From the IMG/VR virus record IMGVR_UViG_3300039443_000002: a stretch of 46,501 nt of DNA; one strand, given 5' to 3'. Position numbers and translations under genes: made by a program. Below the pieces are notes generated by a model. That model saw only the letters and a program-made list of their open reading frames with translations, was not told where the DNA came from and made no database searches. This document shows positions 3,352 through 46,458 of this stretch, piece after piece (the first letter of the stretch is position 1; each line of letters begins with the position of its first letter). Source of the stretch: a virus.

Positions 3352-3425
3352 TCTGTTTTACCTCTTGTGTGTTTACCGAACGTAAATGGAATTTAGCTAA
3401 GTATTTATTAGCTATAATCTCGTCG

Positions 3426-6400
3426 TCACTTAGTTGACCCGGACGCATTGGGCATACCTCTACGTAACTGCAAGGCTTCTGTTAATATTTTAGTCATCTC
3501 TTCCGCTCCAGGTAGCGGCGCTTTGTTCTGAATTACAGTTAATTGCTTTACTACCTCTATGGCTTTGGACGGCGGTATATGGTTCTGTACCATCCAAGCC
3601 ATAACCCTACCTCTGTCTACTGACATCTGGTACCAGTTGTCGATGTTCTGGTTAATGGCTTTTGTCCGTCTGTCTAGCTCCGCCTTTGGGACACCTCCTG
3701 TTAGCTGGTCATTCCTCAACGCTACCTGCGCGTTCTGTATTGACTTGTAGACATCATCTACAGCTTTGCCATACTCGTCAAATGTGTACTGCATATTCGC
3801 CGCAGGTCGCACGTAACTTAACTGTAGACCAGTACCGCGTAGCAATTGCCATAGCCACGCTTTCTCTACTGGCTGAATGTTCATGTCCGTGTCAGACCGC
3901 TGTGTACCAAATACACTTAATTGCTCCGGTCTGACAATGTTACCGTGAACGTCGTACATCTTTGCGTAGCCGAAGACACCGCCAGGGTTTACATCGTTTA
4001 TGTCTTTTGTAAACGGTACGGCTGCTGACAACAGGGCTGCTGCTGCTCGGCTCATGGGGATGCCCAGGAAGGTGTTGCCCTTAGCTAGCGGGTTGGGTAT
4101 GTCCCGTCCTTCGGGGTGCAGCTCCTCTACCATGTTCTGCAACCATGTCCCATTGGTAGCGTCGTTAAGCCAGTCTACCCAAGTGTCCTCACCGCCGATG
4201 CCCGCGTCGCTTAGCGCTTGGTCTCTCTGTCGTTCAGCGCTACCACTGTAATTGCCCCCATGTCCTGACAAAGACCCAAAGGCGTGCCAAACCCGTTGAC
4301 CTTCGTCATTAATGAAAGAAAGTGCGTCAAGTCTAGGGTCATAGCTTGTTGCTCGTAGGAATACATTAACACCGTCTACTGGTCCTTTTTGCACGAGAAT
4401 GGGAAAACGCAAACCGTCAAAGTCTCGAACACCGCCTTCAGGTATGCTATTAGCACCTTCGTACTGGTTCCATGCTGACAATAACCTATAGTATGCGACA
4501 TACTTATAAGGCTCTGCTAACATGTTGCGTATTGTCAGCGGTAAGTTCTTCATGCCCCAGGTAGCGAATGGCTTCAACCAGGTTGTGACAAACTTACCCG
4601 CTGTTCCTGTGTCAGCATAGTTAGGAAAGTATTCACCAATATGACCCATAGCGTCTTCAAATTTGTTAAACCTCTTAGGCATGAGGGCGAGGTTATACAT
4701 GCCGTCTGCACGCTCGCCTACTGTCTGAAGCACCGCGAGTTTTGCAGCAGCCTCCATAGACAAACCGACGTTGACAAATGGAGCGATGGTAGCGTCGACC
4801 GCTCTCCCGATTAACTCGGACCCGTAATGAATTCCCTTTAGCGGGTCTTTGAATGCGTCGCTGTACGCCAGAAAGTTCCTAATCGCCCCCGGCAATTTAG
4901 CCGGGTTTATTGCTTCACCACTACTATGACTGACCAACCATGGAGCTATAGAACTGTCCGTGTGCAACAAGGCTCGTTGCATGAATTGACGATGGGTGAG
5001 CATCTCCCCGTCGAACTTGATGAATGGCTTTGCGTTGTCGAAGGAGTCGAATCCCGTCTTCATCACTTGATGGTAGTCGATGTAACTTCCCAGGAAGCGG
5101 GACATATCCCCTCCGGCTGCTACCGTATTAGCCATGCTCTGCCAAAACATCCTACCGATGAATAATATTTTGCTCGACAAGTTGACACTACCCTTATAGA
5201 AATGATGCAGATAACTCCAGACCCCGCCAGCTTCAGCCAAAGCGCTTGGGCTAGCTGCGACATTCATCACCGCCTTCCACTGGTCCGCAGCTACCCTATG
5301 AACGTACAAATCACTTGCAGGTATGTCAATCCCAAATTGCTTGGGATTAAGACTGCCGACATTAACGTAGCGGCTTTTGTCTACAGCACTGAGACTGTCA
5401 TAGTCGTCTTTCGTGATTGTCCACCCAGCTTGAAGACCGTCCTTGATGACTGTCTTCGTAGAAGCGTAGTTAGCCACCCCGCGCTTAAGCCCTTCTGTGT
5501 AAGTCTTTATGGCTTCAACGGGGTCGTTACGCCATATTTCGTTAATAAACTTATGCGGGAGTTCATACTTAGTGACAAGGTAGTCATAAGCTTCACGGCT
5601 AGACATTGGCAGCTTCGTGAGTACCCCACTGTCAACGAGCTGGTCTACCTGCTCTGGTGTAGCGGACTGCTGGAGGAAATTACGCCACTCCCTGGGGTCG
5701 TCTGACAGAACCATTCGCTTTATTTCGTTTGATGAAGTTCCCAGAAATTTAGCTGCAATCTCTGCGTCTTCCGGCATATAGTGATAGGTAGACCGCATTC
5801 TATTCCAAACGGTAGAGAGACCGTTCTGATTGTATGAGCCACCTTTACGAAGTTCACTGTCCTCTATGCCTGAGAGTTCTTTCGCAAGGTCAGACTCTGG
5901 TTCCAGAGTACGCATGTAGAACGACATGTCCGGTGTTGCGATGCGTGGAAAATAACCCAAACCTTGCAGCTTCGATATATCGGAAATGCCCATCGCTTTG
6001 CCCAGAATCCGAGCTTCATCGAATGCAGAAGCTATGTCAGCCCCGCGTTTCACCAGCCCTTCATAGTCGGCTTGAGACAAGCCCATCTGTCGCATTCGGT
6101 CAGCAAAGTCCGTATAGCGACGACCGTTAAATTGACCGACAAGAGTCGTGTCGCCGTAGACTGTTTTGGACTTAGGTATTTGTCCAATTTCTACGGCGTC
6201 TCTCATTAGGAACTGTTTCTCTACTTCAGAAAACTTATACTTAGTAGATAGGGACTCAATGTAATCTCTAGCCGCTTTGACTCTTTGTAATGAATTATAT
6301 AGACCAGCCTGTCTCAGATAGTTCTGCGCCAACTCACGAGCTTTTACAATCTGTTCGTGCGCTAAGCCTGGGACTGACTTACCCAGACCGATTAGCATGT

Positions 6401-6680
6401 TATGTGTCTCGCCTAGAGACGCAGCTAGGAATGAACCAAGTCTGTCGTACTCCCCAGGACGGAGCATTACGAGGTGAGCCATCTCGTGCTGAAGTAAGTC
6501 CTCAATTCCGGCGCGAACTGCGGCGACGTTATCGGCAGCGTCTTGGAGATTGCCAAACATAGCATTGCGTTTGTTCACCTCAATTTTGCGCTTCGCCAGA
6601 TCAGACAATTCGTATGGATCGAAGTCGCGCTCTTTTGGTGTTTCAGTTCTTGTCGGATTATTATTGCAAAATACACTCAT
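3426..6680 (-). CDS. Large (1084 aa) putative internal/ejection virion protein with an N-terminal HExxH motif
   Basis: Position between the internal-protein genes and the tail fibres. HEMAH at residues 65-69 (nt 6474-6488). No other family recognised. Confidence 0.55.
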   Translation of the reverse strand: MSVFCNNNPTRTETPKERDFDPYELSDLAKRKIEVNKRNAMFGNLQDAADNVAAVRAGIEDLLQHEMAHLVMLRPGEYDRLGSFLAASLGETHNMLIGLGKSVPGLAHEQIVKARELAQNYLRQAGLYNSLQRVKAARDYIESLSTKYKFSEVEKQFLMRDAVEIGQIPKSKTVYGDTTLVGQFNGRRYTDFADRMRQMGLSQADYEGLVKRGADIASAFDEARILGKAMGISDISKLQGLGYFPRIATPDMSFYMRTLEPESDLAKELSGIEDSELRKGGSYNQNGLSTVWNRMRSTYHYMPEDAEIAAKFLGTSSNEIKRMVLSDDPREWRNFLQQSATPEQVDQLVDSGVLTKLPMSSREAYDYLVTKYELPHKFINEIWRNDPVEAIKTYTEGLKRGVANYASTKTVIKDGLQAGWTITKDDYDSLSAVDKSRYVNVGSLNPKQFGIDIPASDLYVHRVAADQWKAVMNVAASPSALAEAGGVWSYLHHFYKGSVNLSSKILFIGRMFWQSMANTVAAGGDMSRFLGSYIDYHQVMKTGFDSFDNAKPFIKFDGEMLTHRQFMQRALLHTDSSIAPWLVSHSSGEAINPAKLPGAIRNFLAYSDAFKDPLKGIHYGSELIGRAVDATIAPFVNVGLSMEAAAKLAVLQTVGERADGMYNLALMPKRFNKFEDAMGHIGEYFPNYADTGTAGKFVTTWLKPFATWGMKNLPLTIRNMLAEPYKYVAYYRLLSAWNQYEGANSIPEGGVRDFDGLRFPILVQKGPVDGVNVFLRATSYDPRLDALSFINDEGQRVWHAFGSLSGHGGNYSGSAERQRDQALSDAGIGGEDTWVDWLNDATNGTWLQNMVEELHPEGRDIPNPLAKGNTFLGIPMSRAAAALLSAAVPFTKDINDVNPGGVFGYAKMYDVHGNIVRPEQLSVFGTQRSDTDMNIQPVEKAWLWQLLRGTGLQLSYVRPAANMQYTFDEYGKAVDDVYKSIQNAQVALRNDQLTGGVPKAELDRRTKAINQNIDNWYQMSVDRGRVMAWMVQNHIPPSKAIEVVKQLTVIQNKAPLPGAEEMTKILTEALQLRRGMPNASGSTK

Positions 6681-6687
6681 ATGTCAT

Positions 6688-9600
6688 CTACCATTCACAC
6701 GGATTATTCTGACCCTCAGTTGTGTGACTTTCAAAGTCTGACTTCCAGTCAGCTAGAAAGTCTGCCTTTGCCTGCTGTGCCGCAGACAACCGCTCCGGTT
6801 CCGCGACTTGTTGAAGACGCTTATCTGCTGACAGCAGTCGATGCACTGCGCGACTGCCTTCATCTTCTACTAGTTGTAAGTCCTCCTTCGTCTTGTCAAG
6901 TAACCGCGACTGGAGAGTTATGTTACTCTCCATTTGATTCACTTGCGCTAGCGGCGATTGAGGGTGTTGGGAACTTACCAAGCTATCAGCGTTATATCGT
7001 GAAGCGGCTTGACCTAGTACGTCGTTTGCTACGCGAGCTTGGCTATCCAATAACTGCGCATTCCCTGACAGAAGATTGACCTTGTCACCATCCGTGATCG
7101 CGTCGAAGCCCATGGAATGCAAGGTTAGTGAGCTAACCTTGCTTACGTTGTGCAGCGTCTCTTCGTCCGTTACACCACTGGCGATTAGACGTTTCTCCAT
7201 TTGTGTAAAGTAATCCCCAAAGGGAGTGTCACCTTTAATGGACTTGGTGAAGTTTGCTATCTCGTCCTTGTTTACTCCGCCGACTTCTCGTAAGATCTCT
7301 CTAAATGCATTTTTGACCTGATTAGCCACTGCGGGTCGAAGGGGTACCCTAGTGTCAAGAGGTGAGTGGGTGGATAGCTTAACTTCGTGAACTGTTCCAG
7401 CGTCGCTATATAATCTTCCAGACACTGCTGGTAGATTATCTGTTGCTTTAGCATCTGCAAAAGTACGCGCCGTCTCCACATCAGAAACAACATACGTGCC
7501 GTGACCCCACTCATGGCGACCGCTACCATCAGCCCAGTTAACATCTGGTGTCCACTCCTGTACTTTAGTTCCGTGAAAAAATGACCGACCATTCAAATCA
7601 GCAGCCAGTTCCGAATTCGGTAAAGCGACTCCAGCGTACTTTGCTGGAATCTGGGTTTCCAGAGGGCGCGGTACCGTTGGCAACATTCGCCGTCCGATGT
7701 CAACCGTTGAATTTTCTAGCTTTTGATATGACAAATTCAGAACCTGACTCTGCTTCGTCACCTCGTCCTGAAGATGATTCACTGTCGCAGCTATATTCGC
7801 TGCTTGGCGCTCTGCATTCAGCTTTGCTTGAGTCTGGATTGTCGAAGAATGAGACTGACCAACTTCTGTATCCGGTATACGACTACGTTGCAGGTCTCTT
7901 AACGCGTCTGGACGACCAACAACGTCAGGGTCAGTAATGTTGACACGCAGGTTATGCGCCAAGTCCGTTGTCTCCGCTTTGGCTACTTCATTAGCTTTGT
8001 CAATGATGTAGCTACCCGGCTTGGACAATGGCGACACATCCATCGAAGTGTCAGGGTGAGCTGTGTCTACTGACACAGCCAGAGGATTACCGTCGCCAGC
8101 CAGCACGTTAAACTCTCCGCCAGCCAGTACGCTCTTGGGAATTTCAGCGCCGTAGGGTGCAAATATTGTCTTGTATATAGGGTCAGTAGCGCCGCGTTCT
8201 TGCAGCAAGGTATCTATCTGACCCCAACGTTTTAGTGCGACTGCATCTTTCCCCAAAAGGGGAGCGCCGTCGGGACCAGGAATGACACGGGCTAACCAGT
8301 CCATTTCGTCAATAGTACGTAGAGACTTATTCAGCATCGCCGGGTCTACCTGCATCCCAGGCTTCATAGTGCTTAGGGCTGACACTATATCGCTGTTCTT
8401 CTGCACACCCGTTAGAACATTGCCGCTAATAACTTTCCTTGCTAAGTCCTCCGTGGACATTTGGGCAGGATGAACGTATTCAACGTTATTGTTGACATTG
8501 TTTACAGCTTCTTCTAGTGACAACTTATGGTTATTCATCCAGTCTGTCACTTCGCTCATGCGCTCCATCGCTTCAAATGGAGAGTTGAATTTAAGCCCTA
8601 ATTTTGCAGCAGCTTGCGTTATAGGTGTACCCGTAATGACAGGCGTTGGTGACGCTGCCAGCGTCGTTGTAGGCTCTATTTGAGCTTTGGGGACAGATGG
8701 AGTTACCCTAATAACTTCCGGCCCGTCTACCCCCGGCGCGGGAATTGACACGTACTTTATGTCTCTTCCTGTTCTAACCGCCACAGGAGCAGGAAGCCTG
8801 ACAGGGGCTTGTGTCGGTGTTGGTGTAGCAGCTCCAGCACCAGTTCCCGCTTCAGACACAGGCGTTTCAGTTCGTCGCCGTGGCATGAGCTTACCAGGTT
8901 CTTGAACGTTACCCGCTGGTATAGTACCCGCCATAACTTCGCTGTTGACACTGGGCTTTCCTTCAGTTACAGTTGGCTTTATAGAAGTATTCTCTACACT
9001 TATTCCAGGTCCCTCACCCTCTGGCGGGACCATTTTTATAGGATGATTTAACGGTGACGAACTTTCACCTATTGCTGGTAACGCGGGACGCTCCGGTGCT
9101 CCTACTAACTGTTTTGGGGTGCCAGCTTCTGGCGCTGTTGGCGGTTCTGTACTTAATGGAACCAGACGACCTCTAGGCTTAATCTTGTTGTAGACAGCGC
9201 CCAGAGCTTTGTTGATGGGGTTGATTTCGTCTACGTTGTGGTAGACTAGCATATCAACCGCCATCCCAGCCCAGAAGCGTGGGTCAGAAATATTACCACC
9301 GGAACCAAATCCGAATGCGTGAGTCTTGTCCTGTGTACCGGAGAAGGAGCTTTGCTCACCACGTAGCGCGTTTAGGAAATGACTTCCTTTATACTGGGGT
9401 GTCGGCGCTATTGGTTCGACAGGTTGTAGGGAGGCAGACGGAAGTTGGACATTATTACCGAAACCAGCACCAAGTACAGACTTACCAGTTTGTCCAGTGT
9501 TGTTCATCAAAGGCTTGCTAGCCCAGCTCAGCCCCTGGTTGAGATATTTGACACCACTGTTGTAGAGATTAGCAGCATCATTGCCGAAGTCATGAGTGAG

Positions 9601-10671
9601 AGCATAGTCAGTAACACCATGCATCCATCCTGGGGTCACGCTGTCGATAGCTCTGGCAGCGCGGTTGAGGACGCTATTGAACGCATCTCCGACGCGACCA
9701 TAAGGTGCTGGGTTAGTGTTGCGCAGGTCTGCCACAGCGCCAAGGACAGCGTTCGGGACAACACCAAGAGTGTATAGAATACCACCAATAGGACCATTAC
9801 CCGCTTCACCGAACTGTCCTTTTGTCGGGTCAAACGGGTTAGTGCTGGGAGCGCCCCAGCTTCCCAACCAGCCCCAGAACGTTTTCATCATTGACCCAGT
9901 AGCGTCTGGGCGGTACTTGGTAGGGTCAGTAATGGTTTGCGGCTTAGGCTTCATCAGCCCCATGTTCAGGTTGTCATTGCTAATCTCCGTTAGTTGCTGC
10001 CTGAACTTCTGGTCCTCCTGGTCTAGATTGTCGCTACCCTGCTTTTGGTACCAAGTCGGGACATAGTTATGGGCTAATTCCTGCTCACCCAGCCCATGCA
10101 TCGTGTCACTACCTTGCTTTAGTAGGTAGTTCATCGGGTTGGTATCAGCGATTACCTGCGACGGGCTAGGTTGCCCAGAACTGGGAGCTTGCGGTATTGG
10201 GTCGCCTGGGGACAGAGTTGGGAAATTCTTGGGGTCAAGAAAGTTGTTAGGGTCGCCCTGGTTCATTGCGAACACGCTAGGGTCCTGACCGGGCATCTTT
10301 GACACTGGCGCTCCAGGGAATACCTGGTCGCCGCCCTGCGGTCCTGTCGGTCCCTGTGGCAGCAATGCATTAGTTTGCTGTAATGACTGCTGCATCATGT
10401 CACCACCCTGCTGATCCTGGGCAGGAGTGCTAGGCTGTGGCAACTCTGTCGCCGTTTGTGGTGGCGGAGCAGCTATACTATGCGGCGCACCACCTGACAT
10501 ATGAGGTTCAGCAACTTTAACTACGGGTAATTGCTGATGCGGTTGCTCAGCATTCTTTTGCTCGTAGTTAGTGACAAGGTTAGGATTAGTTGGTTGGTCA
10601 GGCATCGTGTATGGGCTGTCCGTAATGAGGAACGGTGGGCGAACCGCTCTGCCGCAGCTTGTCACAGACAC
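6688..10671 (-). CDS. Large (1327 aa as tracked) putative internal/ejection virion protein with a Pro/Gln-rich N-terminal region and an ADP-ribosyltransferase-like signature near the C-terminus
   Basis: Long ORF in the internal-protein block. FFHGTK ... WGHGTYVVSDVETARTFA at nt ~7480-7581. The real start is probably the ATG at 10605 (MPDQPTNPN), which overlaps the stop of the upstream 63-aa ORF. Confidence 0.55.
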   Translation of the reverse strand: MSVTSCGRAVRPPFLITDSPYTMPDQPTNPNLVTNYEQKNAEQPHQQLPVVKVAEPHMSGGAPHSIAAPPPQTATELPQPSTPAQDQQGGDMMQQSLQQTNALLPQGPTGPQGGDQVFPGAPVSKMPGQDPSVFAMNQGDPNNFLDPKNFPTLSPGDPIPQAPSSGQPSPSQVIADTNPMNYLLKQGSDTMHGLGEQELAHNYVPTWYQKQGSDNLDQEDQKFRQQLTEISNDNLNMGLMKPKPQTITDPTKYRPDATGSMMKTFWGWLGSWGAPSTNPFDPTKGQFGEAGNGPIGGILYTLGVVPNAVLGAVADLRNTNPAPYGRVGDAFNSVLNRAARAIDSVTPGWMHGVTDYALTHDFGNDAANLYNSGVKYLNQGLSWASKPLMNNTGQTGKSVLGAGFGNNVQLPSASLQPVEPIAPTPQYKGSHFLNALRGEQSSFSGTQDKTHAFGFGSGGNISDPRFWAGMAVDMLVYHNVDEINPINKALGAVYNKIKPRGRLVPLSTEPPTAPEAGTPKQLVGAPERPALPAIGESSSPLNHPIKMVPPEGEGPGISVENTSIKPTVTEGKPSVNSEVMAGTIPAGNVQEPGKLMPRRRTETPVSEAGTGAGAATPTPTQAPVRLPAPVAVRTGRDIKYVSIPAPGVDGPEVIRVTPSVPKAQIEPTTTLAASPTPVITGTPITQAAAKLGLKFNSPFEAMERMSEVTDWMNNHKLSLEEAVNNVNNNVEYVHPAQMSTEDLARKVISGNVLTGVQKNSDIVSALSTMKPGMQVDPAMLNKSLRTIDEMDWLARVIPGPDGAPLLGKDAVALKRWGQIDTLLQERGATDPIYKTIFAPYGAEIPKSVLAGGEFNVLAGDGNPLAVSVDTAHPDTSMDVSPLSKPGSYIIDKANEVAKAETTDLAHNLRVNITDPDVVGRPDALRDLQRSRIPDTEVGQSHSSTIQTQAKLNAERQAANIAATVNHLQDEVTKQSQVLNLSYQKLENSTVDIGRRMLPTVPRPLETQIPAKYAGVALPNSELAADLNGRSFFHGTKVQEWTPDVNWADGSGRHEWGHGTYVVSDVETARTFADAKATDNLPAVSGRLYSDAGTVHEVKLSTHSPLDTRVPLRPAVANQVKNAFREILREVGGVNKDEIANFTKSIKGDTPFGDYFTQMEKRLIASGVTDEETLHNVSKVSSLTLHSMGFDAITDGDKVNLLSGNAQLLDSQARVANDVLGQAASRYNADSLVSSQHPQSPLAQVNQMESNITLQSRLLDKTKEDLQLVEDEGSRAVHRLLSADKRLQQVAEPERLSAAQQAKADFLADWKSDFESHTTEGQNNPCEW

Positions 10672-37689: not shown

Positions 37690-38046
37690 ATGGCTACTAC
37701 CCTTGTCGGCATCATCATCTTCTGCGACAACACTGCTGACCTAGAGACGGTTCGCGGTCAGGTTGTCACCATGATTAACCAGTCACCATCTAAGTTTGTT
37801 TACTATGACACTGAACTCGTTACTGGAACAACTCACCCATTTGCTTTGCTTGGTGGTACTGGTGGCGCTCAATATAGCACTAGCATGGGAAACCAACAGC
37901 TCAACCAGACTGTCAATCCCTCTGCTGGTCTGTACGTCGGTCCCGCTACTAGCACTGCTGGCTTGCCGTCGGGCGGATACATAGCCCGTGTCTACTTCCG
38001 TAACAAAGCTGACGCTGACACCTTCGTTGCTGCTCTAAGTCTGTGA
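37690..38046 (+). CDS. Hypothetical protein (118 aa)
   Basis: ORF in series with its neighbours. No family recognised. Confidence 0.5.
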   Translation: MATTLVGIIIFCDNTADLETVRGQVVTMINQSPSKFVYYDTELVTGTTHPFALLGGTGGAQYSTSMGNQQLNQTVNPSAGLYVGPATSTAGLPSGGYIARVYFRNKADADTFVAALSL

Positions 38047-38702
38047 GAATTAAGCGTACTGACCGCATTGAATACAAGGTTCATGAACTGGTGCTTGGTG
38101 AACCGACTAAGCGCCAGCAACGTTTCTTGCCTGACAACGTTCAGATATACGCTGACCTAGACAAGCCAGTGTCAGAAGAGTACTTCATGGTGCTATGCAA
38201 CTGGATTAGAAACCTAGAGCGCAAGCACTATAAGAACTGCAAGTTTGACCTAGACGAAACGTTAGACCGTGTGTCAGAGTTCCTGCAATATGCCAGAGAA
38301 AACAAGCACATGACTGGCGAATGGACTATGGCTACTTGGCGTATCCAGTTCGCTAAGGTCGAGACACTGCGTGAACTCAAGAAGCTAAACATAGATGTGT
38401 TTGACCAAGAGTTGTCAATCACTGACAAGCTCCGGCATCCCATGACACGTTGGTTTACTAAGTTGTTTGCACTAGCAAGACGTATGTCTAACGCTGGTGT
38501 TCCCATGACAATGGAAGCTATAGCCGACGAATGGATGAAGGACGCGCGGAACAAAGGCGGATTAGCACGGGAGAACTTCCTAAGACAGTATGCTAGATGG
38601 TCACTCGTATTACTCGAATGCGCCCACACAGAACGAGCATGGGCAGAGCGCAGTGTCACAGATGGATTTGGTCACGATATTGGCGGTAAATTCTACACGT
38701 AG
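38043..38702 (+). CDS. Hypothetical protein (219 aa), GTG start overlapping the previous stop
   Basis: GTGA overlap at 38043-38046. No family recognised. Confidence 0.5.
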   Translation: MRIKRTDRIEYKVHELVLGEPTKRQQRFLPDNVQIYADLDKPVSEEYFMVLCNWIRNLERKHYKNCKFDLDETLDRVSEFLQYARENKHMTGEWTMATWRIQFAKVETLRELKKLNIDVFDQELSITDKLRHPMTRWFTKLFALARRMSNAGVPMTMEAIADEWMKDARNKGGLARENFLRQYARWSLVLLECAHTERAWAERSVTDGFGHDIGGKFYT

Positions 38703-39114
38703 ATTCCGGTGGCTAGTCAAGCTAGGCTGCTGGAGACTAGGTATACCGATACCCGCAGCGTGTCATTCCGCCATTGTCATACGCGGCGATGTGTATGAGC
38801 TGACCGACAGAGGTATATATAAGCACCCTGGTCGCAGCTTCTTTGACGACATGGGTTATGAACTCATACGCGCTCGGACATTTGTCACACCCTACGGCGC
38901 GTTATGGATAGATAGAATAAGGACACTTGCTCTTGCAGGAACTAGGCTAAGATATACAGACGTTCTTCGCCTCTTTCTAGGCATAACCCCGCAAGGACTA
39001 CTCTGCACATCATTTGTCCAAGCCGTGATGGGGCTGCCCTTGTCACCAGTACCACCAACACCAGACGAACTAATCGAACAGGTCATTAACTATGAGCGAC
39101 AACATCAGAGCTAG
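38590..39114 (+). CDS. Possible permuted papain-fold (YiiX/NlpC-P60-like) hydrolase; the start is more likely the ATG at 38661
   Basis: His-then-Cys order: AACHSAIVIRGDVYELTDRG ... RYTD ... GLLCTSFVQAV resembles permuted NlpC/P60 enzymes. The tracked N-terminus overlaps the previous gene by 113 nt. Confidence 0.35.
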   Translation: MLDGHSYYSNAPTQNEHGQSAVSQMDLVTILAVNSTRRFRWLVKLGCWRLGIPIPAACHSAIVIRGDVYELTDRGIYKHPGRSFFDDMGYELIRARTFVTPYGALWIDRIRTLALAGTRLRYTDVLRLFLGITPQGLLCTSFVQAVMGLPLSPVPPTPDELIEQVINYERQHQS

Positions 39115-39310
39115 GTTGGTCAAGGAAACTAACGATACTGACATCTTGATGTGTATAGATGTACCCGTGCGTCCTATTGACGGATTGCTCAACTTGCTGC
39201 CAGAATACCTACGTTTCGGTTGGTTCGTTCCGCAGAACAAAGAAATCCCAATAGTCATCCATGAGACTAATAAGATTTATGTTGTGTTGGAACTGGATGA
39301 CGTTAGCTAA
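39092..39310 (+). CDS. Hypothetical protein (72 aa)
   Basis: ORF overlapping the previous stop. No family recognised. Confidence 0.45.
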   Translation: MSDNIRARLVKETNDTDILMCIDVPVRPIDGLLNLLPEYLRFGWFVPQNKEIPIVIHETNKIYVVLELDDVS

Positions 39311-39350
39311 TATCACCAAATTATGACAATTGAATTAGGAGATAAACACC

Positions 39351-41594
39351 GTGGATAGGAATGACAGCCGAGCGGTGTCAAGGGAGCGCTGTCCTGAATG
39401 CGCCAAGCTAGGGCAAGACACCAAGGGCGACAACTGCATTGTCTATTCAGACGGTCACAAGCATTGCTTTGCCTGTGACTGGCATCAAAGTTCAGACGGC
39501 GACATTAGCTGGAAGACTAGCTACAAGCCACCGCTAGACAACGGCGCAATACCTGACATCCAGTCCAGAGGCTTGACAAAAGCAACCTGCGAAAGGTTTG
39601 GTGTCAAGATAATGGCAGCGCTGGACGAAGACGGCGACCCTATTTACACTAAGATTCCGGGCGCTACAGATGCTGACTGGGAGATTAAGTACCAGGGAAC
39701 TAGTAAGCTCATGTTCCCGTACTACGACGCTAAAGATTTAACTACGCTCCGCACCGTTCACATCAGAGACTGGAGCAAACCAAAAGACCAAGGCTATCCA
39801 TTCGACACGAGGAACGGCGGTAGCGTAGCTGAAATATCATTCTTCGGTTTGAACTGCCTTAACACCAAGTCTGACACCCTTGTCATAGTAGAGGGCGAGA
39901 CTGACACCATGACCATCGCCCAGATGTTCCCCAAGCTGGCGGTGTTGGGATTCCCCGGCGGAGCTGGTGTCAGGTGGGCGACGAGGAGTGCTGATATATT
40001 CAGTAGCTTCAAGAGGATTGTCATCCTGACAGACAACGATCATGCTGGTGACAACTTCAAGCTGGAGTTGTCCAAGAAGCTGCCAGAGGAAAAGATTTAT
40101 ATAGGCAAGTACCCTAGGGGCTACAAGGACGCTAACGACGTCCTGGTAGCCTACAACAAACTGTCAAGGGCAGAGTCTAAGAAGGAGCTGTTTGACGAAC
40201 TAGAGAACGCTATTAAGTATCCTGCAAAGCTGACACCGCCATTGATTGTCCCGCCAGAGCAGATGCGGAAATCGTTCTATGACAGGTGGCTGTCAAAAAA
40301 GCCCAAGCCCAAAGGGATAAGGACAGGATACCCGGAACTGGACGAAGTGACACATGGTCTTAAGCCTGGGTTCCTGTATGTCCTGGCAGGCGACACAGGC
40401 GTCTGTAAGTCCAGCTTGATAGAGAACATCGCCCTAAACGCAGCGCGTCTCAGTGGTGTCAAGAGCATGTTCATATCTACAGAGATGGGCAACGACCAAA
40501 CCTTTGACCGGATCGTACAGGCTGACACTGGGCTACCGTTTGACAGAGACATGTTTTTCGACCCAACTCCACACGCTGAAACGCTGAAGAAGAGCGTTGA
40601 CTTTCTGTCGGAGCTGATAACATTCCGAGACCAGGGGCCGAAGATTAACACTGACAAGGTGATGGCTACCATCGACGAGGCGGTAGACAACGGTATCAGA
40701 TTGATACTAGTTGACCCAATCACTGGTACGACAGATACTGCGGATGACTATGGATGGGCTAAGCTTGAAAATTTTATGAAGGAGCTGAAGGCCAAAGCTA
40801 TAGCCAGAGACATTCCTATTGTCACAATCAGTCACATAAGTAGGAACGGTACTAAGTCCGGCAGTGTGCCGGAAACCCAACACTTAAGAGGGTCAAATGG
40901 CATAGGTCAACAGGCAGACTTCATACTGGCTATAGGACGGGACAGAGAAACTCCAGTGATAGAATGCGTTGTCAAGAAGCTGGACAGGGTTACAGGTAAG
41001 TCCGGTAGCTGGAAACTATACTTAGAAAATGAACGCATTGTTAGCAAGTCTGACGTTCCCTCTGTCCTTGAAGTAAGACATGACAAACCAGCAGTCAAAG
41101 CCGACACCCCAAAAGAGACCGACCAATGCGAGACGGGAAGGGCAGTACCGGAGCAAGTTCGAGAAGAAGATAGCGGAGTGCAACCCTTACCTAGAGTACG
41201 AGACGATGACACTCCGGTATACGACATCCCACGACTACCTACCAGACTGGATTATCGACAGGTCGCGGGCTGTCTTGTTGAACAAGGAGCTGAAGCACTT
41301 GCACGACTTATCACACCAACGCCGGAAGACATTCTCGCTGGCAACTACGCGACGCTCCGAATCATGTACAAAGACGGAAGCGAACCAAGCCCACCAAGAG
41401 ACAAGTGTCAATTCACGGAAGCGTTCAGCGCCGTCAACCAGCCTGGACACATCTATATGTTTCATCGAGGCAAAAGGATTGCTGTCATCCGAGGACAGGA
41501 AGAAGCTCTTAGCTGTCAAGCGTTGCCACCCGACAGCGGACATCAGACTGGTACTGATGGAGCCTTACCGGAAACTGACGAAGGCACCGAATAG
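39351..41594 (+). CDS. Bifunctional DNA primase-helicase (T7 gp4-like) with an unusual ~170-aa C-terminal extension
   Basis: GTG start with AGGAG upstream. Zn finger CPEC...CFAC. TOPRIM motifs VIVEGETD and ILTDNDHAGD. Helicase Walker A LAGDTGVCKSS and arginine-finger block HLRGSNGIGQQADFIL. Confidence 0.85.
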   Translation: MDRNDSRAVSRERCPECAKLGQDTKGDNCIVYSDGHKHCFACDWHQSSDGDISWKTSYKPPLDNGAIPDIQSRGLTKATCERFGVKIMAALDEDGDPIYTKIPGATDADWEIKYQGTSKLMFPYYDAKDLTTLRTVHIRDWSKPKDQGYPFDTRNGGSVAEISFFGLNCLNTKSDTLVIVEGETDTMTIAQMFPKLAVLGFPGGAGVRWATRSADIFSSFKRIVILTDNDHAGDNFKLELSKKLPEEKIYIGKYPRGYKDANDVLVAYNKLSRAESKKELFDELENAIKYPAKLTPPLIVPPEQMRKSFYDRWLSKKPKPKGIRTGYPELDEVTHGLKPGFLYVLAGDTGVCKSSLIENIALNAARLSGVKSMFISTEMGNDQTFDRIVQADTGLPFDRDMFFDPTPHAETLKKSVDFLSELITFRDQGPKINTDKVMATIDEAVDNGIRLILVDPITGTTDTADDYGWAKLENFMKELKAKAIARDIPIVTISHISRNGTKSGSVPETQHLRGSNGIGQQADFILAIGRDRETPVIECVVKKLDRVTGKSGSWKLYLENERIVSKSDVPSVLEVRHDKPAVKADTPKETDQCETGRAVPEQVREEDSGVQPLPRVRDDDTPVYDIPRLPTRLDYRQVAGCLVEQGAEALARLITPTPEDILAGNYATLRIMYKDGSEPSPPRDKCQFTEAFSAVNQPGHIYMFHRGKRIAVIRGQEEALSCQALPPDSGHQTGTDGALPETDEGTE

Positions 41595-41688
41595 CAAGAC
41601 CTACGCTGACTGGTGTGAACTACACGGCTTCCCGTGGTGCGAAGGACCATACATTCCTACTGAGTGGTATTGGGATTATGACATGTGA
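41080..41688 (+). CDS. T7 endonuclease I (gp3)-like Holliday-junction resolvase, with an internal insert of about 64 aa
   Basis: YRSKFEKKIAE, LEYE, HDYLPDW, then ICFIEAKGLLSSEDRKKLLAVKRCHPTADIRLVL and IPTEW parallel T7 gp3 (FRSGLEDKV, FEYE, HTYTPDF, FVETKGLWESDDRKK...HPELDIRIVF, IPAEW), recalled from memory. Confidence 0.75.
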   Translation: MTNQQSKPTPQKRPTNARREGQYRSKFEKKIAECNPYLEYETMTLRYTTSHDYLPDWIIDRSRAVLLNKELKHLHDLSHQRRKTFSLATTRRSESCTKTEANQAHQETSVNSRKRSAPSTSLDTSICFIEAKGLLSSEDRKKLLAVKRCHPTADIRLVLMEPYRKLTKAPNSKTYADWCELHGFPWCEGPYIPTEWYWDYDM

Positions 41689-41830
41689 CAAATGGGAATT
41701 GCTTGGCATCTATGACGACAGCGACTTGACTGACACTGTCAAAGGACTTATTGACGACGACATCCCATACAGAGTAGCCACGCGAGGCGGGCGCTATCAC
41801 ATCTATACGCTTGTCTGTGGTGTAGAATAG
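41615..41830 (+). CDS. Hypothetical small protein (71 aa tracked; likely 50 aa from the ATG at 41678)
   Basis: The internal ATG at 41678 overlaps the endonuclease stop by 11 nt (MTCDKWELLGIYDD...). Confidence 0.45.
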   Translation: MNYTASRGAKDHTFLLSGIGIMTCDKWELLGIYDDSDLTDTVKGLIDDDIPYRVATRGGRYHIYTLVCGVE

Positions 41831-41858
41831 CGGATGTAAGCAAGGAGAGTTGTTTCTT

Positions 41859-41915
41859 TCCCTAGCGGCGCTTCTGGTAAACGTGATTCCCCAGAGCATC
41901 GACTAGGGATTTTTT
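41859..41915 (+). terminator. Long imperfect hairpin plus T6 (intrinsic terminator)
   Basis: Outer stem TCCCTAG/CTAGGGA and inner stem GCTTCTGG/CCAGAGC, followed by TTTTTT. The 3' arm shares CGACTAGG with the 36788 terminator. Confidence 0.6.
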
Positions 41916-41935
41916 CATGCAAAAATTTTATGACC
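41910..41935 (+). promoter_or_regulatory. Operon-start motif TTTTTTCATGCAAAAATTTTATGACC (second identical copy)
   Basis: Identical to 36811-36836. Lies 20 nt upstream of the DNA polymerase ATG. Confidence 0.5.
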
Positions 41936-41954
41936 AAAAGCAAATGGAGGGCAA

Positions 41955-43775
41955 ATGAAATATGTTGTTATCGACCTTGAGACAGACGGTTTGGGCAGGG
42001 ATTGCAATATACATTGTGTCGGCTTTGCTTGTAGAGATGGTAATGAAGTTAAGAGCTACTGCAAACCTTGGAATGAAGGAGGACGGGACCTTGTTATTTT
42101 CTGGCTCACTATGGAAGACGCTGTGTTTGTTGTACATAACGCAGCTTTTGATATTGCTGTTCTGCGTCAAAACGGTATTAACATACCACCAGGACGCTAC
42201 GTCTGTACATTCGTCATGGCATACCTCACGGACCCTGGATGCATTGACGGGCATAGCCTTGAGCGCTGGGGCAATGTAGTAGGTTGTCCTAAGTCAGACA
42301 AACCTAAGAGCTTTACATCTCTTACACAGGAAATGATGGACTACTGCCGTCAGGACTGTGTCACTACACTCAAAGTCTTCGAGTATCTACAGGGTATATA
42401 CACCCGTAACGAACGTCTGCTAAACGTCTACAACCGACTAGAACTACCATATGTCGAAGTTGTAATGGCTCTGAATAGGACTGGAATGTATGTAGACCAA
42501 GCGGCGCTTGAAGAGTTGGACAAGGAACTTACAGCATTAATTGCAGCTAATGACAAACAACTCATAGCTGAAGCTGGACTCGTGCCGACAAAGGTTAGTT
42601 GGAACTATGAATACCAAGTCTATGTACCTGAAGAGACAATTTACCGTAATGGGGTGTATCGTAACCCTAAAAACCTTGAAAAGTACAAGTGTAACCCAAT
42701 ATATGACCATTGCCCGTTGGGACTCATTAGAGCGTCACAACCTGAAGTCATAGCATGGCTGCTAATGCGACGAGGCTGGAAGCCAACCATATTCAGTGAC
42801 AATGGCAAGCCAAAGCTGGACGAGAAAGTGATGAAGGCAGCACAGAGCAAGTTTGACATAGTGTCACTCATTATGGAGAACCGCAAGCTGAACAAGCTCA
42901 AGGGAACATATGTCGACACTATGAAGGAGATGTCAGCCAAGGATGGGTTTGTCAGAGGACAATTCAACCAGTGTCGGACTGACACGACTAGACTGTCTAG
43001 TTCAGAACCGAATATGCAGAACATTCCAGCACGTTCTGAACTGGGTAAAAAGATTAGGAAGTGCATCATAGCGCCTCCTGGCTTCAAGATGGTTGTCGGG
43101 GACTTAGACCGCATTGAGTTAGTAGTACTGGCGTACTATCTAGAGCAGTTCACCGGCGACCATGGTATGTCAGATGAGATACGCAAGGGGACAGACATAC
43201 ATGCCTACAACGCTGCTCGCTGGGGCTGTACTCGCGACCAGGCTAAGACAGTCATCTTCCTAATCAACTATGGTGGCGGACCCAGCAGGCTAGCTGGTCA
43301 GCTAGGCATTAGCCGCGACGAAGCTGAAGACATCATGCGCGGTGTCCATGAAGCCATGCCGTCGCTCAAGACTTTAATGGAGGACACCATAGACTATACG
43401 TTCAGGAACAACTGCATTCTGAACGACATTAGCGGGCATTGGCTGACATACAAGGAACTGCGGAGCAACGACGAGGCTTTAGAGTCGTCTGCTCGTAGGC
43501 GTTGTTTCAACGGACTCATTCAAGGAGGTGCAGGGGCAGTATTCAAAGAAATGCAATTACGCATATTCCCGCTGATGATATCGCTGGGCGTGTTGTATTC
43601 ATGCGTAGTTCATGACGAATTAGTTCTGTATGTTCCAGAATACTGTGCGTCAATGGTTGTCGAATTACTGAATGGAGAAGTACCGTCTCAGGACATACTT
43701 GTCACAGATAGAGGACCAATTCCTATAAGAATTGACTTTAAAATTTATGACAACTGGGGAGACGCGAAAGGATAG
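41955..43775 (+). CDS. Family-A DNA polymerase with a 3'-5' exonuclease domain
   Basis: Exo I VIDLETDGL. Pol motif A VVGDLDRIELVVLAYY. Motif B RDQAKTVIFLINYGGG. Motif C VVHDELVLYVP. GGAGGG SD upstream. Confidence 0.9.
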   Translation: MKYVVIDLETDGLGRDCNIHCVGFACRDGNEVKSYCKPWNEGGRDLVIFWLTMEDAVFVVHNAAFDIAVLRQNGINIPPGRYVCTFVMAYLTDPGCIDGHSLERWGNVVGCPKSDKPKSFTSLTQEMMDYCRQDCVTTLKVFEYLQGIYTRNERLLNVYNRLELPYVEVVMALNRTGMYVDQAALEELDKELTALIAANDKQLIAEAGLVPTKVSWNYEYQVYVPEETIYRNGVYRNPKNLEKYKCNPIYDHCPLGLIRASQPEVIAWLLMRRGWKPTIFSDNGKPKLDEKVMKAAQSKFDIVSLIMENRKLNKLKGTYVDTMKEMSAKDGFVRGQFNQCRTDTTRLSSSEPNMQNIPARSELGKKIRKCIIAPPGFKMVVGDLDRIELVVLAYYLEQFTGDHGMSDEIRKGTDIHAYNAARWGCTRDQAKTVIFLINYGGGPSRLAGQLGISRDEAEDIMRGVHEAMPSLKTLMEDTIDYTFRNNCILNDISGHWLTYKELRSNDEALESSARRRCFNGLIQGGAGAVFKEMQLRIFPLMISLGVLYSCVVHDELVLYVPEYCASMVVELLNGEVPSQDILVTDRGPIPIRIDFKIYDNWGDAKG

Positions 43776-43812: not shown

Positions 43813-44358
43813 ATGTGGGAACCTGAAAATAACCTTGTAATTCCGGTGGAAGACCGGAAGAAAAACGCTGAGCTAGATGTCAGACCGTATGCAATGAAGA
43901 CACCGAAGGGCTTAGACTACCTGCCATGGTCAGTGTCAGCAACATTACTTTACAAGTACAATTCAAACCTTGAAGTTGGCTACGACGAAGATGAACATGG
44001 AAACCCGTTCTTTGTCACACCATTCGGTTGTTATATTCGGGCGTACATATTCGATAAGGTTGCTGGGAAGCGAACACCAAGCATGGTATTCCCTTGTCGA
44101 ATTGACAGACTTAAAGGTGAGTCGTCTACCGACTGGGCAAACAGACATAGAACTGACACTAACATGTCACTCATTGGTAACGACTTGCAGAGAGCTTTTG
44201 CGAAAGTTATTGCAAAAGAAGTAGGTTTCGGTTGGTCACTGTACAGTAAGTATGACGAGTCTATTGACGACGAGTTAGATAAAGACACCAAGGAACTACA
44301 TGAAACGAGACCAGTTGCAGCTGCCAGAAAGTCAATTACCCGTGCAGAACTATTCTGA
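43813..44358 (+). CDS. Single-strand annealing protein (Sak / DUF1071, Rad52-like)
   Basis: GLDYLPWSVSATLLYKYNSNLEV...HGNPFF ... QRAFAKVIAKEVGFGWSLYSKYDE follows the Sak/DUF1071 pattern (from memory). Acidic tail. Confidence 0.5.
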   Translation: MWEPENNLVIPVEDRKKNAELDVRPYAMKTPKGLDYLPWSVSATLLYKYNSNLEVGYDEDEHGNPFFVTPFGCYIRAYIFDKVAGKRTPSMVFPCRIDRLKGESSTDWANRHRTDTNMSLIGNDLQRAFAKVIAKEVGFGWSLYSKYDESIDDELDKDTKELHETRPVAAARKSITRAELF

Positions 44359-44506
44359 CCTTAAAGAGAAAGTGTTCCTAGACTACATACACGCATTACG
44401 CGTAACTAATGTAGAACTGGAACTGGAGAACAAACAGCTACGAGACAAAATTGAACGGTTGACAGAAGAGAACGTAGTGAACGAAGAAAAATACCTGGAA
44501 AATTAG
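44300..44506 (+). CDS. Small coiled-coil protein (68 aa)
   Basis: ORF overlapping the previous gene end. Leucine-heptad sequence ELELENKQLRDKIERLTEEN. Confidence 0.4.
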   Translation: MKRDQLQLPESQLPVQNYSDLKEKVFLDYIHALRVTNVELELENKQLRDKIERLTEENVVNEEKYLEN

Positions 44507-44516
44507 GACGGTAATT

Positions 44517-44837
44517 ATGGCTAACAAAAACCCTGACCTGACTGGCTTCATCTACCTCAAGAAAAACAAGGGCATAGAAGGTTCCCCTTGTCTCAAAGGC
44601 TTCATCAAAGTCCCTCTGTCTTTCATTGACCGCTTCACGCACGAAGCCGACGAAGAAGGAATGGTTATGCTAGACGTAGCATTGTGGCATACCAAGAACA
44701 ACGCTGAAGCCGTAGCTGGTAATGTGACACTGACTTACTCAGCACAGCAAAAGGAAGCTGCTCTTAAGTCTCAGTCCACTGCTAAGTCCAACGGCAATGG
44801 CAAACGTAAGTACCAAGATGAGGAGCCTATATTCTAA
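44517..44837 (+). CDS. Small SSB-like protein (106 aa) with an acidic C-terminal tip ending in Phe
   Basis: The C-terminus ...RKYQDEEPIF resembles the SSB tip (DDDIPF) and the T7 gp2.5 tail. Sits between the annealase and exonuclease genes. Confidence 0.4.
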   Translation: MANKNPDLTGFIYLKKNKGIEGSPCLKGFIKVPLSFIDRFTHEADEEGMVMLDVALWHTKNNAEAVAGNVTLTYSAQQKEAALKSQSTAKSNGNGKRKYQDEEPIF

Positions 44838-45739
44838 TGGACAAGACAGCTTACGCTTACCTAGCAGAATGCATCACTTGGTTGTCAGAAGGCAAAGAAG
44901 AGGTAGGACAGCACGTTAACGTTCAGTATACGAAGTTAGTGTCTGAGTCCTTTTATAAACAGTTCTGCCACAAAGAGGGCAGTCATACAACCATCCGTGT
45001 CAGCTCACTAGGTAAGCCAGCTGTTCTCCAGTCCATGAACGTGTTGGGTTATAACGACGTTCCGATAGACTTGCTGTCCAAGTACCGCTTTCATATGGGC
45101 GACACATTTGAAGCGTACCTGATTGTCATGATGGACTGGTACTTTAGAACTAACTATAACCTCAAGCAGTACGCCCACCAAGCAGAGCTAGAGTTCAACG
45201 GCATTACTGGACACATAGACTTCGTACAGGAAACTCCAGCAGGAGCGGTTGTCATAGAAGCCAAAACTATGAATGACAACTACTTCCAACGCTTCACGAA
45301 AGCTCCAGACGACAACAGAGGGTATGTCACGCAGCTAGCAATCTATTCGCACTGCTTGGGCATACCCGCTTTCTGGGTAGCTTTCAACAAGGGAACACAT
45401 GAATTAGCTGTAGTTGCACCTGAACCTAACGTCACAGAAGCAGCATTAATTAGAGCTAATAAAGTCATACCTCCTCTGAAGGAGATACGGAAGGTAGAGC
45501 AGATATGGAACCACTTTTCAGCTCCACCACCCGTCCCAGAAATCTACCGGAAAACCGAGACCGGACTTTATATGGTTCCAGAGTCAATGCGTTACAGTCA
45601 GTTCTCAGAGATGTTTTATGCCATAGGTTACGGTAAAGACAACTATGGACGACAAAAGCGCTATGTAGTGGAACCATATTACAACGATGCTACAACTGCT
45701 ACAAAAATTTTGACTGATATGGGATACAGCGTCATATGA
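44837..45739 (+). CDS. PD-(D/E)XK (RecB/Cas4-like) exonuclease
   Basis: GHIDFVQETPAGAVVIEAKTM contains the D...ExK core. Its ATG abuts the stop of the previous ORF. Confidence 0.65.
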   Translation: MDKTAYAYLAECITWLSEGKEEVGQHVNVQYTKLVSESFYKQFCHKEGSHTTIRVSSLGKPAVLQSMNVLGYNDVPIDLLSKYRFHMGDTFEAYLIVMMDWYFRTNYNLKQYAHQAELEFNGITGHIDFVQETPAGAVVIEAKTMNDNYFQRFTKAPDDNRGYVTQLAIYSHCLGIPAFWVAFNKGTHELAVVAPEPNVTEAALIRANKVIPPLKEIRKVEQIWNHFSAPPPVPEIYRKTETGLYMVPESMRYSQFSEMFYAIGYGKDNYGRQKRYVVEPYYNDATTATKILTDMGYSVI

Positions 45740-46458
45740 ATTACGACCCGTACTTTGCAATAGTTACGCTGCACAGACCGATAGACGCACAACGCACGGC
45801 TTACTTAGCCATGCATCAATGTTACTCTGACCACCATGTAATTGAGACACATTTGGATTGGGTGAAGTGTGGAGAAATCGTTGTCGACAGATTGCTTAAG
45901 GGAAATAGAGGACATTATAGCCCGCTCGAACATTGTCATATCGTATTGTCCTGCGGCTACTTCCCCCATAGCATGGTGCAACAGCTTACTCGCCATCGCC
46001 TACTTAGCTTCTCGGTTCAGTCGTTCCGGTACACATCTGAGTCGGTTGTCAGAGTGGCTCGTGGGGATCAAAAACTAGAAGAGGTATTTTATACCCGTCC
46101 TTTCGACCAGCTTTACACCAATAGACAAGGTAAGAAGTATATCTATACTGCTGAAGACGCTGCGCTAGATAAGACTTTTTTCATGGATTTAGCTTTGGAC
46201 TATAAGCGCAAACTTGATCTAGGAGTGTCAGAAGAACATGCTCGCAACCTATTACCTATGGACATCCGTCAGCATTTTGTTATGTCTGGCAACTTACGGT
46301 CTATGCTGCACATCCTCGACATGCGACACAAACCAGACGCACAATACGAAATCCAAGAGTTCAGCCGCCTGCTCCATAAAGAATTGACGGGCTGGGTGCC
46401 TGAAATTATGGGATGGTACGATAGACAGAGACTGAACAAAGGAATGCTAGCACCATGA
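45736..46458 (+). CDS. thyX: Flavin-dependent thymidylate synthase
   Basis: ThyX signature LTRHRLLSFSVQSFRY (RHRxxSxxxxSxR). Size of 240 aa fits. Confidence 0.9.
   Translation: MNYDPYFAIVTLHRPIDAQRTAYLAMHQCYSDHHVIETHLDWVKCGEIVVDRLLKGNRGHYSPLEHCHIVLSCGYFPHSMVQQLTRHRLLSFSVQSFRYTSESVVRVARGDQKLEEVFYTRPFDQLYTNRQGKKYIYTAEDAALDKTFFMDLALDYKRKLDLGVSEEHARNLLPMDIRQHFVMSGNLRSMLHILDMRHKPDAQYEIQEFSRLLHKELTGWVPEIMGWYDRQRLNKGMLAP

Follow-up and report, generated by a model that had tools for sequence, protein, structure and literature searches.

That genes can overlap out of frame over long stretches is familiar from small RNA and single-stranded DNA viruses. In tailed double-stranded DNA phages such overlaps are rare and are usually suspected to be annotation errors. 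The Rz/Rz1 spanin genes of lambda and T7 are classical overprinted pairs. A described counterpart of the locus reported here is found in the cultured Anabaena phage A-4L (Saffermanviridae, Kozyakovvirus), whose GenBank entry (KF356198 / NC_024358) annotates a primase/helicase (ORF16R, 7830-9869) and an endonuclease (ORF17R, 9469-9939). In the papers on A-4L that were consulted, ORF16 and ORF17 are treated separately and the overlap passes without comment. We describe here a homologous pair in the DNA of an uncultured phage (IMG/VR record IMGVR_UViG_3300039443_000002; the whole stretch of 46,501 nucleotides (nt) is called the window). The last 171 codons of its primase-helicase gene are, in a different reading frame, also the first 171 codons of its gene for endonuclease I, a Holliday-junction resolvase of the T7 gene 3 type. 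Judged from sequence, this is probably true same-strand out-of-frame overprinting, shared by three very divergent podoviruses, in which selection appears to keep both frames open. We put the probability of this reading at roughly 0.7.

The two genes and their shared 515 nt

The primase-helicase open reading frame (ORF) runs from 39351 to 41594 on the plus strand and encodes 747 amino acids (aa). It begins with GTG after a Shine-Dalgarno motif (taGGAGat). A zinc finger with an invariant CPEC...CFAC, a Toprim domain (Toprim_2, aa 178-265) and a DnaB-type helicase domain (DnaB_C, aa 322-534) are present in one chain, as in the T7 gp4-like primase-helicases, and the protein matches PHROG 239 (E=2e-88). 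The initial annotation had placed the end of the recognisable helicase near 41040. This is in agreement with our credible alignment to the nearest helicase, which reaches about aa 564 (nt 41040). The remaining tail of about 183 aa (41040-41594, plus strand, frame 0) lies over the endonuclease gene from 41080 and is not interrupted before the TAG at 41592-41594. Since there is no stop between the GTG at 39351 and 41594, each full-length helicase carries this tail, and its last 171 residues are overlapped.

The endonuclease I ORF (41080-41688, plus strand) starts with ATG, stops with TGA and encodes 202 aa. It is in the +1 frame of the helicase, and the helicase is in the +2 frame relative to it. 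Its identification as a clear T7 endonuclease I homologue is borne out by matches to PF05367 (68.7 bits; curated cut-off 29.1), to PHROG 945 (E=1e-29) and to the T7 endonuclease I structures 1M0D, 1FZR and 2PFJ (E~5e-12). The match falls into two parts: residues 25-60 correspond to the T7 chain as far as the PD motif, and residues 127-197 to the chain from ExK onward. We aligned the protein with those of T7, A-4L, a metagenomic contig (L001, described below) and three other homologues. All residues invariant across six homologues are retained in the window, E28, D56, E130 and K132 among them. The catalytic residues of T7 endonuclease I, which we take to be E20, D55, E65 and K67, were the basis for assigning catalytic roles here. 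Because the family-invariant residues are intact, we consider the window endonuclease probably functional. The N-terminus (MTN..Q/PTP) is similar to those of A-4L and L001. A word-indexed protein search with the endonuclease ORF gave no matches, and an AlphaFold model calculated without an alignment was unusable (pLDDT 36).

The gene was missed by metagenome gene callers and is not among the calls for loci L029 and L030. Its ATG is preceded by a weak Shine-Dalgarno sequence, as are several other genes in the window, and a scan of 39000-42200 for sigma-70 promoters and terminators found nothing exceeding the shuffled expectation. We suggest that endonuclease I is translated independently, with ribosomes initiating internally at the ATG at 41080 from this weak ribosome-binding site. 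In A-4L, where a predicted promoter ahead of ORF17 is active in E. coli (PMC9803696), the endonuclease start may have a promoter of its own.

The two ORFs, both of which are in the ORF list of the window, share 515 nt. In this interval the helicase and endonuclease frames are free of stops and the third frame contains nine, including the TGA at 41279-41281, as had been described for the window. A TAA in the endonuclease frame (41074-41076, plus strand) lies one codon 5' of the endonuclease ATG. Any fusion product would thus need a frameshift inside the overlap. The helicase stop (TAG, 41592-41594, plus strand) falls within a variable loop of the endonuclease.

The initial annotation had offered three explanations without choosing among them: true overprinting, an assembly indel and a frameshift-linked helicase-nuclease product. 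Only the first is supported, and it draws on the presence of the same overlap in three divergent genomes, on stop avoidance and on a depletion of T at third codon positions. An indel in sequencing or assembly that falsely joined the helicase ORF to downstream DNA is effectively refuted. The only point for it is the prior that long overlaps are often errors. The window is base-identical to ENA contig k141_681619 over 17,151 nt and to the Logan assembly of SRR7091543 over 14,487 nt, with zero mismatches in each, and a JGI contig encodes an identical 747-aa protein. The overlap also recurs in L001 and in cultured A-4L, whose genome is finished; both are saturated in substitutions relative to the window.

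L001 is a 6.3-kb Logan contig with a helicase 31% identical to that of the window. Its helicase ORF (2475-4421) enters an uncalled endonuclease I ORF (4102-4596) by 320 nt. A-4L was found through its DNA polymerase (our locus L111); its helicase ORF (3136-5175 of the locus), about 32% identical to the window protein, enters the endonuclease I ORF (4775-5245) by 401 nt. The helicases of the three genomes are about 31-34% identical to one another. Like the pair in the window, ORF16R and ORF17R of A-4L are homologous genes in the same order and in the same +1 relation, with the helicase stop in the same endonuclease loop and with the same third-position T depletion. Unlike in the window, the A-4L endonuclease has no insertion. 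The endonuclease is in the +1 frame of the helicase in all three genomes. In the endonuclease alignment the helicase stops occupy columns 197, 192 and 205, all in the variable loop and within 13 columns of one another. The overlap is therefore conserved in divergent relatives.

Programmed frameshifting could in principle give a helicase-resolvase fusion or, by a -1 shift at CCCAAAA (41108), a short-tailed helicase. The sequence does contain a canonical X XXY YYZ heptamer, C CCA AAA, which is in the helicase frame at 41108-41114, 28 nt from the start of the overlap. However, this heptamer leads into the third frame and not into the endonuclease frame, and a -1 shift there would terminate about 20 codons on. 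Neither L001 nor A-4L contains it, the three genomes have no other slippery site in common, and 40800-41950 contains no stimulatory RNA structure or Rfam match. A conserved slippery site with a stimulator leading into the second ORF was thus not found. In all three genomes an in-frame stop lies 1-5 codons ahead of the endonuclease start, and a fusion does not need an open helicase frame for a further 100-170 codons. We regard frameshifting as highly improbable.

Outside these three genomes the arrangement was not seen. Of the 142 distinct related helicase loci that are complete at the 3' end, three have the endonuclease overlap. It is absent from the other 139 and from 12 endonuclease I genes used as controls. 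In the 40 best-matching phage records listed for endonuclease I, a primase-helicase is annotated over the endonuclease in A-4L only. No match to 39351-41830 at the nucleotide level was present in 50,697 phage records, and word-indexed protein searches with the helicase and the helicase alignment gave close matches to itself and L001 only. Scans of IMG/VR, JGI metagenomes and GTDB genomes returned A-4L and about 140 distant helicase loci, none of them 35-100% identical.

Codon choice and stop avoidance in the overlap

To estimate how often the helicase frame would stay open by chance, the endonuclease protein was held fixed and its codons were redrawn synonymously from the usage of the genome in 20,000 trials. 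For the window the helicase frame then contains 13-15 stops on average and was never free of them, which bears out the initial estimate that about 170 open codons are unlikely by chance. The probability of no helicase-frame stop is <5e-5 for the window, 1.5e-4 for L001 and <5e-5 for A-4L; the third frame of the three overlaps contains 9, 13 and 12 stops, respectively. A more conservative permutation, in which synonymous codons are exchanged within the overlap only, gives P=0.003 for the window. The converse permutation, with the tail fixed and the endonuclease frame asked to stay open, gives P=0.0006. Two long ORFs are thus present, each open beyond chance, as is expected of overprinted genes. 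The longest stop-free off-frame runs in 23 other genes of the window are 143 codons (+1) and 128 codons (+2), so that ORF length alone is no proof.

The avoided stops have a clear counterpart in base composition. T occupies 9% of the endonuclease third positions in the window overlap (23% in its other genes), 7% in L001 (30%) and 8% in A-4L (32%). The suspicion that the resolvase wobble positions are constrained by a second frame is thus correct and can be expressed in numbers. After the helicase stop, third-position T in the window endonuclease returns to 26% (31 codons), and the depletion ends at the helicase stop in L001 as well. Where a third-position T would stand before AA, AG or GA, none is found (0/50 in the window, 0/30 in L001). 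In harmless contexts T is still low, at 12.5% in the window and 9% in L001. Third-position G of the endonuclease is 40% in the window overlap, as expected for a first codon position, and the G-rich first codon position noted earlier for the helicase frame is confirmed (G 40%, T 9%).

Twelve non-overlapped endonuclease I genes served as controls. Over 90 codons their equivalent frame contains 3-15 stops (mean 7.9), and their third-position T is 18-38%. By codon usage, the log-odds score of the helicase frame is positive throughout the overlap (+0.16) and drops to -1.0 directly past its stop. Stop-free off-frame windows elsewhere in the genome have a mean score of -0.13 (standard deviation (sd) 0.16).

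These numbers bear on the possibility of tolerated read-through, in which a helicase stop was lost, the extension has no function and the frame is open since the region is T-poor for some other reason. The overlap is indeed poor in T (16.9% vs 20-23% nearby), so that ORFs of 102 and 106 aa stay open on the minus strand as well. Read-through is also favored by the lack of homologues and of sequence conservation in the tail, for which no fold is predicted with confidence. On the other hand, the loss of T is confined to one codon position and ends at the helicase stop (window, L001), and it recurs independently in three genomes of differing background codon usage. The neutral expectation is 9-13 stops, the range in the 12 control genes being 3-15, and the position of the helicase stop is conserved relative to the endonuclease. 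Read-through of this kind is therefore unlikely.

The 64-codon insertion and neighboring features

The window endonuclease carries an insertion of about 64-66 codons (41257-41454, plus strand) between its PD and ExK motifs. This insertion accounts for 192 of the 515 nt of overlap and was overlooked in the initial annotation. It sits between PDW and IEAKG and sets the PD and ExK motifs about 74 residues apart, compared with the usual spacing of about 10. The compact PD...(D/E)xK core with a short hairpin, which L001 and A-4L possess, is not found in the window lineage. None of L001, A-4L, T7 and the three other homologues has the insertion, which is thus specific to this lineage. Minus the insertion, the overlap is about 323 nt, like the overlaps of the relatives. 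The insertion point corresponds to a turn reading PNG in T7, which we take to be the hairpin turn of the T7 endonuclease I structure.

The length of the insertion is a multiple of three, and it is open in both frames against expectation (P=0.004 for the endonuclease frame, P=0.003 for the helicase frame). In the helicase frame it reads RQVAGCLVEQGAEALARLITPTPEDILAGNYATLRIMYKDG...GHIY, and its codon-usage score of +0.21 is coding-like. The endonuclease frame of the same interval is off-frame-like (-0.15 to -0.23). The encoded peptide is rich in S, T and R in the endonuclease frame and more ordinary-looking in the helicase frame. We read the insertion as serving the helicase tail and as carried by the nuclease as a loop.

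Several known kinds of inserted element were considered and rejected. An intein would be longer than 64 residues, and the terminal Cys/Ser...HN are missing. A self-splicing intron or RNA element is not indicated, as there is no Rfam match at E<=1 and no excess structure (folding z-score 0.24). There are no flanking repeats of a mobile element and no copies elsewhere, and nothing similar was detected in the rest of the window or in about 270 loci. Neither frame of the insertion contains a Pfam or PHROG domain.

The insertion raises the possibility that the endonuclease of this lineage is decaying or inactive, having been broken by the 64 added codons, and that the helicase frame alone matters there. 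The wide separation of PD and ExK (~74 residues instead of ~10), the off-frame-like codon usage and S/T/R-rich peptide of the insertion, the weak ribosome-binding site and the failure of gene callers to report the gene all point that way. However, the inserted length is divisible by three and the endonuclease frame is kept open through it (P=0.004). All residues invariant in six homologues are kept, the C-terminal half still scores 46 bits against T7 endonuclease I, and the frame goes on for 31 codons beyond the helicase stop with a positive coding score. The insertion point, presumably a hairpin turn as judged from the T7 structure, also speaks against disruption. We consider decay of the endonuclease very unlikely.

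The closest published case is ShiLan, in which a phage methylase gene contains an insertion that has no stops in the host frame and codes in another frame (PMC11855218). There, as here, the insertion sits within the gene of a phage enzyme, is presumably accommodated as a loop and has its coding signal in the other frame (PMC11855218). The ShiLan insertion holds a self-contained gene for an HNH homing endonuclease, start and stop included, whereas the insertion described here lacks both and shows neither a detectable domain nor signs of mobility. Its alternative frame is part of the helicase tail.

Other features of the locus were recorded as well. A small ORF without a family match (41615-41830) follows endonuclease I. 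From its probable start, the ATG at 41681, it would overlap the endonuclease stop by 8 nt (ATGACATGA), an arrangement typical of translational coupling. Antisense ORFs at 40907-41227 (106 aa) and 41235-41543 (102 aa) are open on the minus strand over the overlap and have no homologues; most simply, they are a by-product of the T-poor plus strand (16.9% T). Upstream of the helicase, ORFs of 219 aa (38043-38702) and 174 aa (38590-39114) in different frames share 113 nt. With the start at 38662 that one gene caller gives for the second ORF, the shared part would be 41 nt; neither ORF has a family match. The DNA polymerase gene of the window lies at 41955-43775, and further genes of the replication module occupy 43813-46458. 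They encode a weak match to a Sak-like single-strand annealing family (E=2e-4), an exonuclease with a Cas4 domain (44837-45739) and the thymidylate synthase ThyX (45736-46458). Among cultured phages, cyanophage A-4L is the nearest relative of the module as a whole.

Endonuclease I genes of the relatives also show individual features. That of L001 has a 25-aa C-terminal extension unseen in the other homologues. Between it and the DNA polymerase gene lies a gene for an HNH_3 homing-type endonuclease (4403-5044), which overlaps the 3' end of endonuclease I by 134-194 nt, depending on the start. An endonuclease I match in another locus (L105, 1236-1604) contains an in-frame stop in the frame defined by tblastn and may be a pseudogene or a sequencing error.

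The helicase tail and comparison with known systems

Long tails are exceptional among these helicases. The median tail beyond the core is 23 codons in the 142 loci, and only four loci exceed 100 codons: the three with the overlap and a 25% identical relative, L013. The latter (5992-8037) encodes a 681-aa primase-helicase with an acidic, proline-rich tail of about 120 aa (PHPLPHPLPQQQPQ...) and no overlapping gene, so that long tails also exist without an overlap. In L013 the helicase gene is followed by a Vsr-like small ORF and a DNA polymerase gene.

The three overlapped tails are net acidic. In the window the overlapped 171 residues contain 30 D+E and 19 K+R. The corresponding counts are 19 and 13 in L001 and 25 and 17 in A-4L. 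Hydrophobic residues make up only 18-22% of the three tails (22% in the window). Acidic clusters follow the helicase core in L001, in A-4L and in the non-overlapped tail of L013. No Pfam, PHROG or PDB match to the window tail was obtained. Overprinted proteins are typically disordered, and the composition of the tail fits the general profile of overprinted reading frames (PMC8227390).

The best-described tail of this kind is that of T7 gp4, an acidic C-terminal segment that binds the polymerase gp5 at its basic patches; its deletion cuts processivity from 17 kb to about 5 kb (PMC12593628). The tails described here resemble it as negatively charged C-terminal extensions of a DnaB-type phage primase-helicase and, by analogy, are probably flexible as well. 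Unlike the T7 gp4 tail, which has 17 residues and is free of gene overlap, they are 110-185 residues long, show no sequence similarity to it and have no evident conserved C-terminal aromatic residue. The most likely role of the tail would be that of an acidic tether, long and flexible, on the hexamer's C-terminal face, in effect an enlarged T7 gp4-type tail.

The following order of events would account for the locus. Endonuclease I is probably the ancestral frame, because its family is widespread, and the helicase tail the overprinted newcomer. The tail would have arisen when the helicase stop was lost and the frame ran into the downstream gene. It may then have been free to vary in sequence while keeping its acidic character and its low content of hydrophobic residues. 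In the window lineage the insertion would have lengthened the tail further, with the endonuclease bearing it as a loop at the PD-ExK turn. More speculatively, ribosomes in the helicase frame that cross the weak endonuclease start may hold nuclease levels low.

Several observations weigh against overprinting under selection on both frames. For L001 alone, the conservative permutation gives P=0.087. In the endonuclease-homologous parts the codon score of the helicase frame is only about 1-2 sd above the off-frame mean; there the score is supportive, not decisive. An exhaustive profile-free phmmer search with the tail against 1.8 billion representatives found no homologues, returning itself and spurious repeat proteins, in which the score adds up over many weak stretches (two were inspected). 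In an alignment of the three tails, the common residues are those that the endonuclease motifs force, such as HQ(T/V) under DIRL. The AlphaFold model of the tail without an alignment (pLDDT 37) neither shows nor excludes disorder. The one ground for a role as a polymerase tether is the likeness to T7 gp4. The overlap is seen in three lineages only, none of them close relatives.

The overlap might alternatively act as a functional coupling device, in which the tail makes contact with the resolvase or sets its level, for instance through ribosome traffic over the weak start, and in which the insertion is a newborn tail module that survives as a loop in the PD-ExK hairpin. If so, one insertion would have remodeled two replication and recombination enzymes at once. 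We think such coupling rather improbable.

Overprinting as such is already known, and the homologous overlap is already visible in the annotation of A-4L. What is new is the evidence that the overlap is conserved and probably kept by selection, the loss of the resolvase from metagenome annotation and the dual-frame insertion. The overlap of 320-515 nt links the replicative helicase with the junction resolvase, both of them core enzymes, and has outlasted the loss of nucleotide similarity. Automatic callers dropped the resolvase in all metagenomic copies, so that the clade looks resolvase-less unless both frames are read. Because A-4L is cultured and has been fully synthesized, and because CRISPR-Cas12a editing exists for Anabaena cyanophages, the function of the tail is directly testable.

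Overprinting at this locus would provide a clean natural example of a C-terminal extension born in this way. As in the classical viral overprinted pairs, such as those of phiX174, one stretch of DNA is read in two frames, codon choice is constrained by both, and the protein of the younger frame is biased toward disorder-promoting residues (PMC8227390). Unlike in those pairs, the new frame here is no separate gene but extends a large upstream enzyme at its C-terminus, and the gene that it overlaps encodes a conserved nuclease of a tailed phage with double-stranded DNA.

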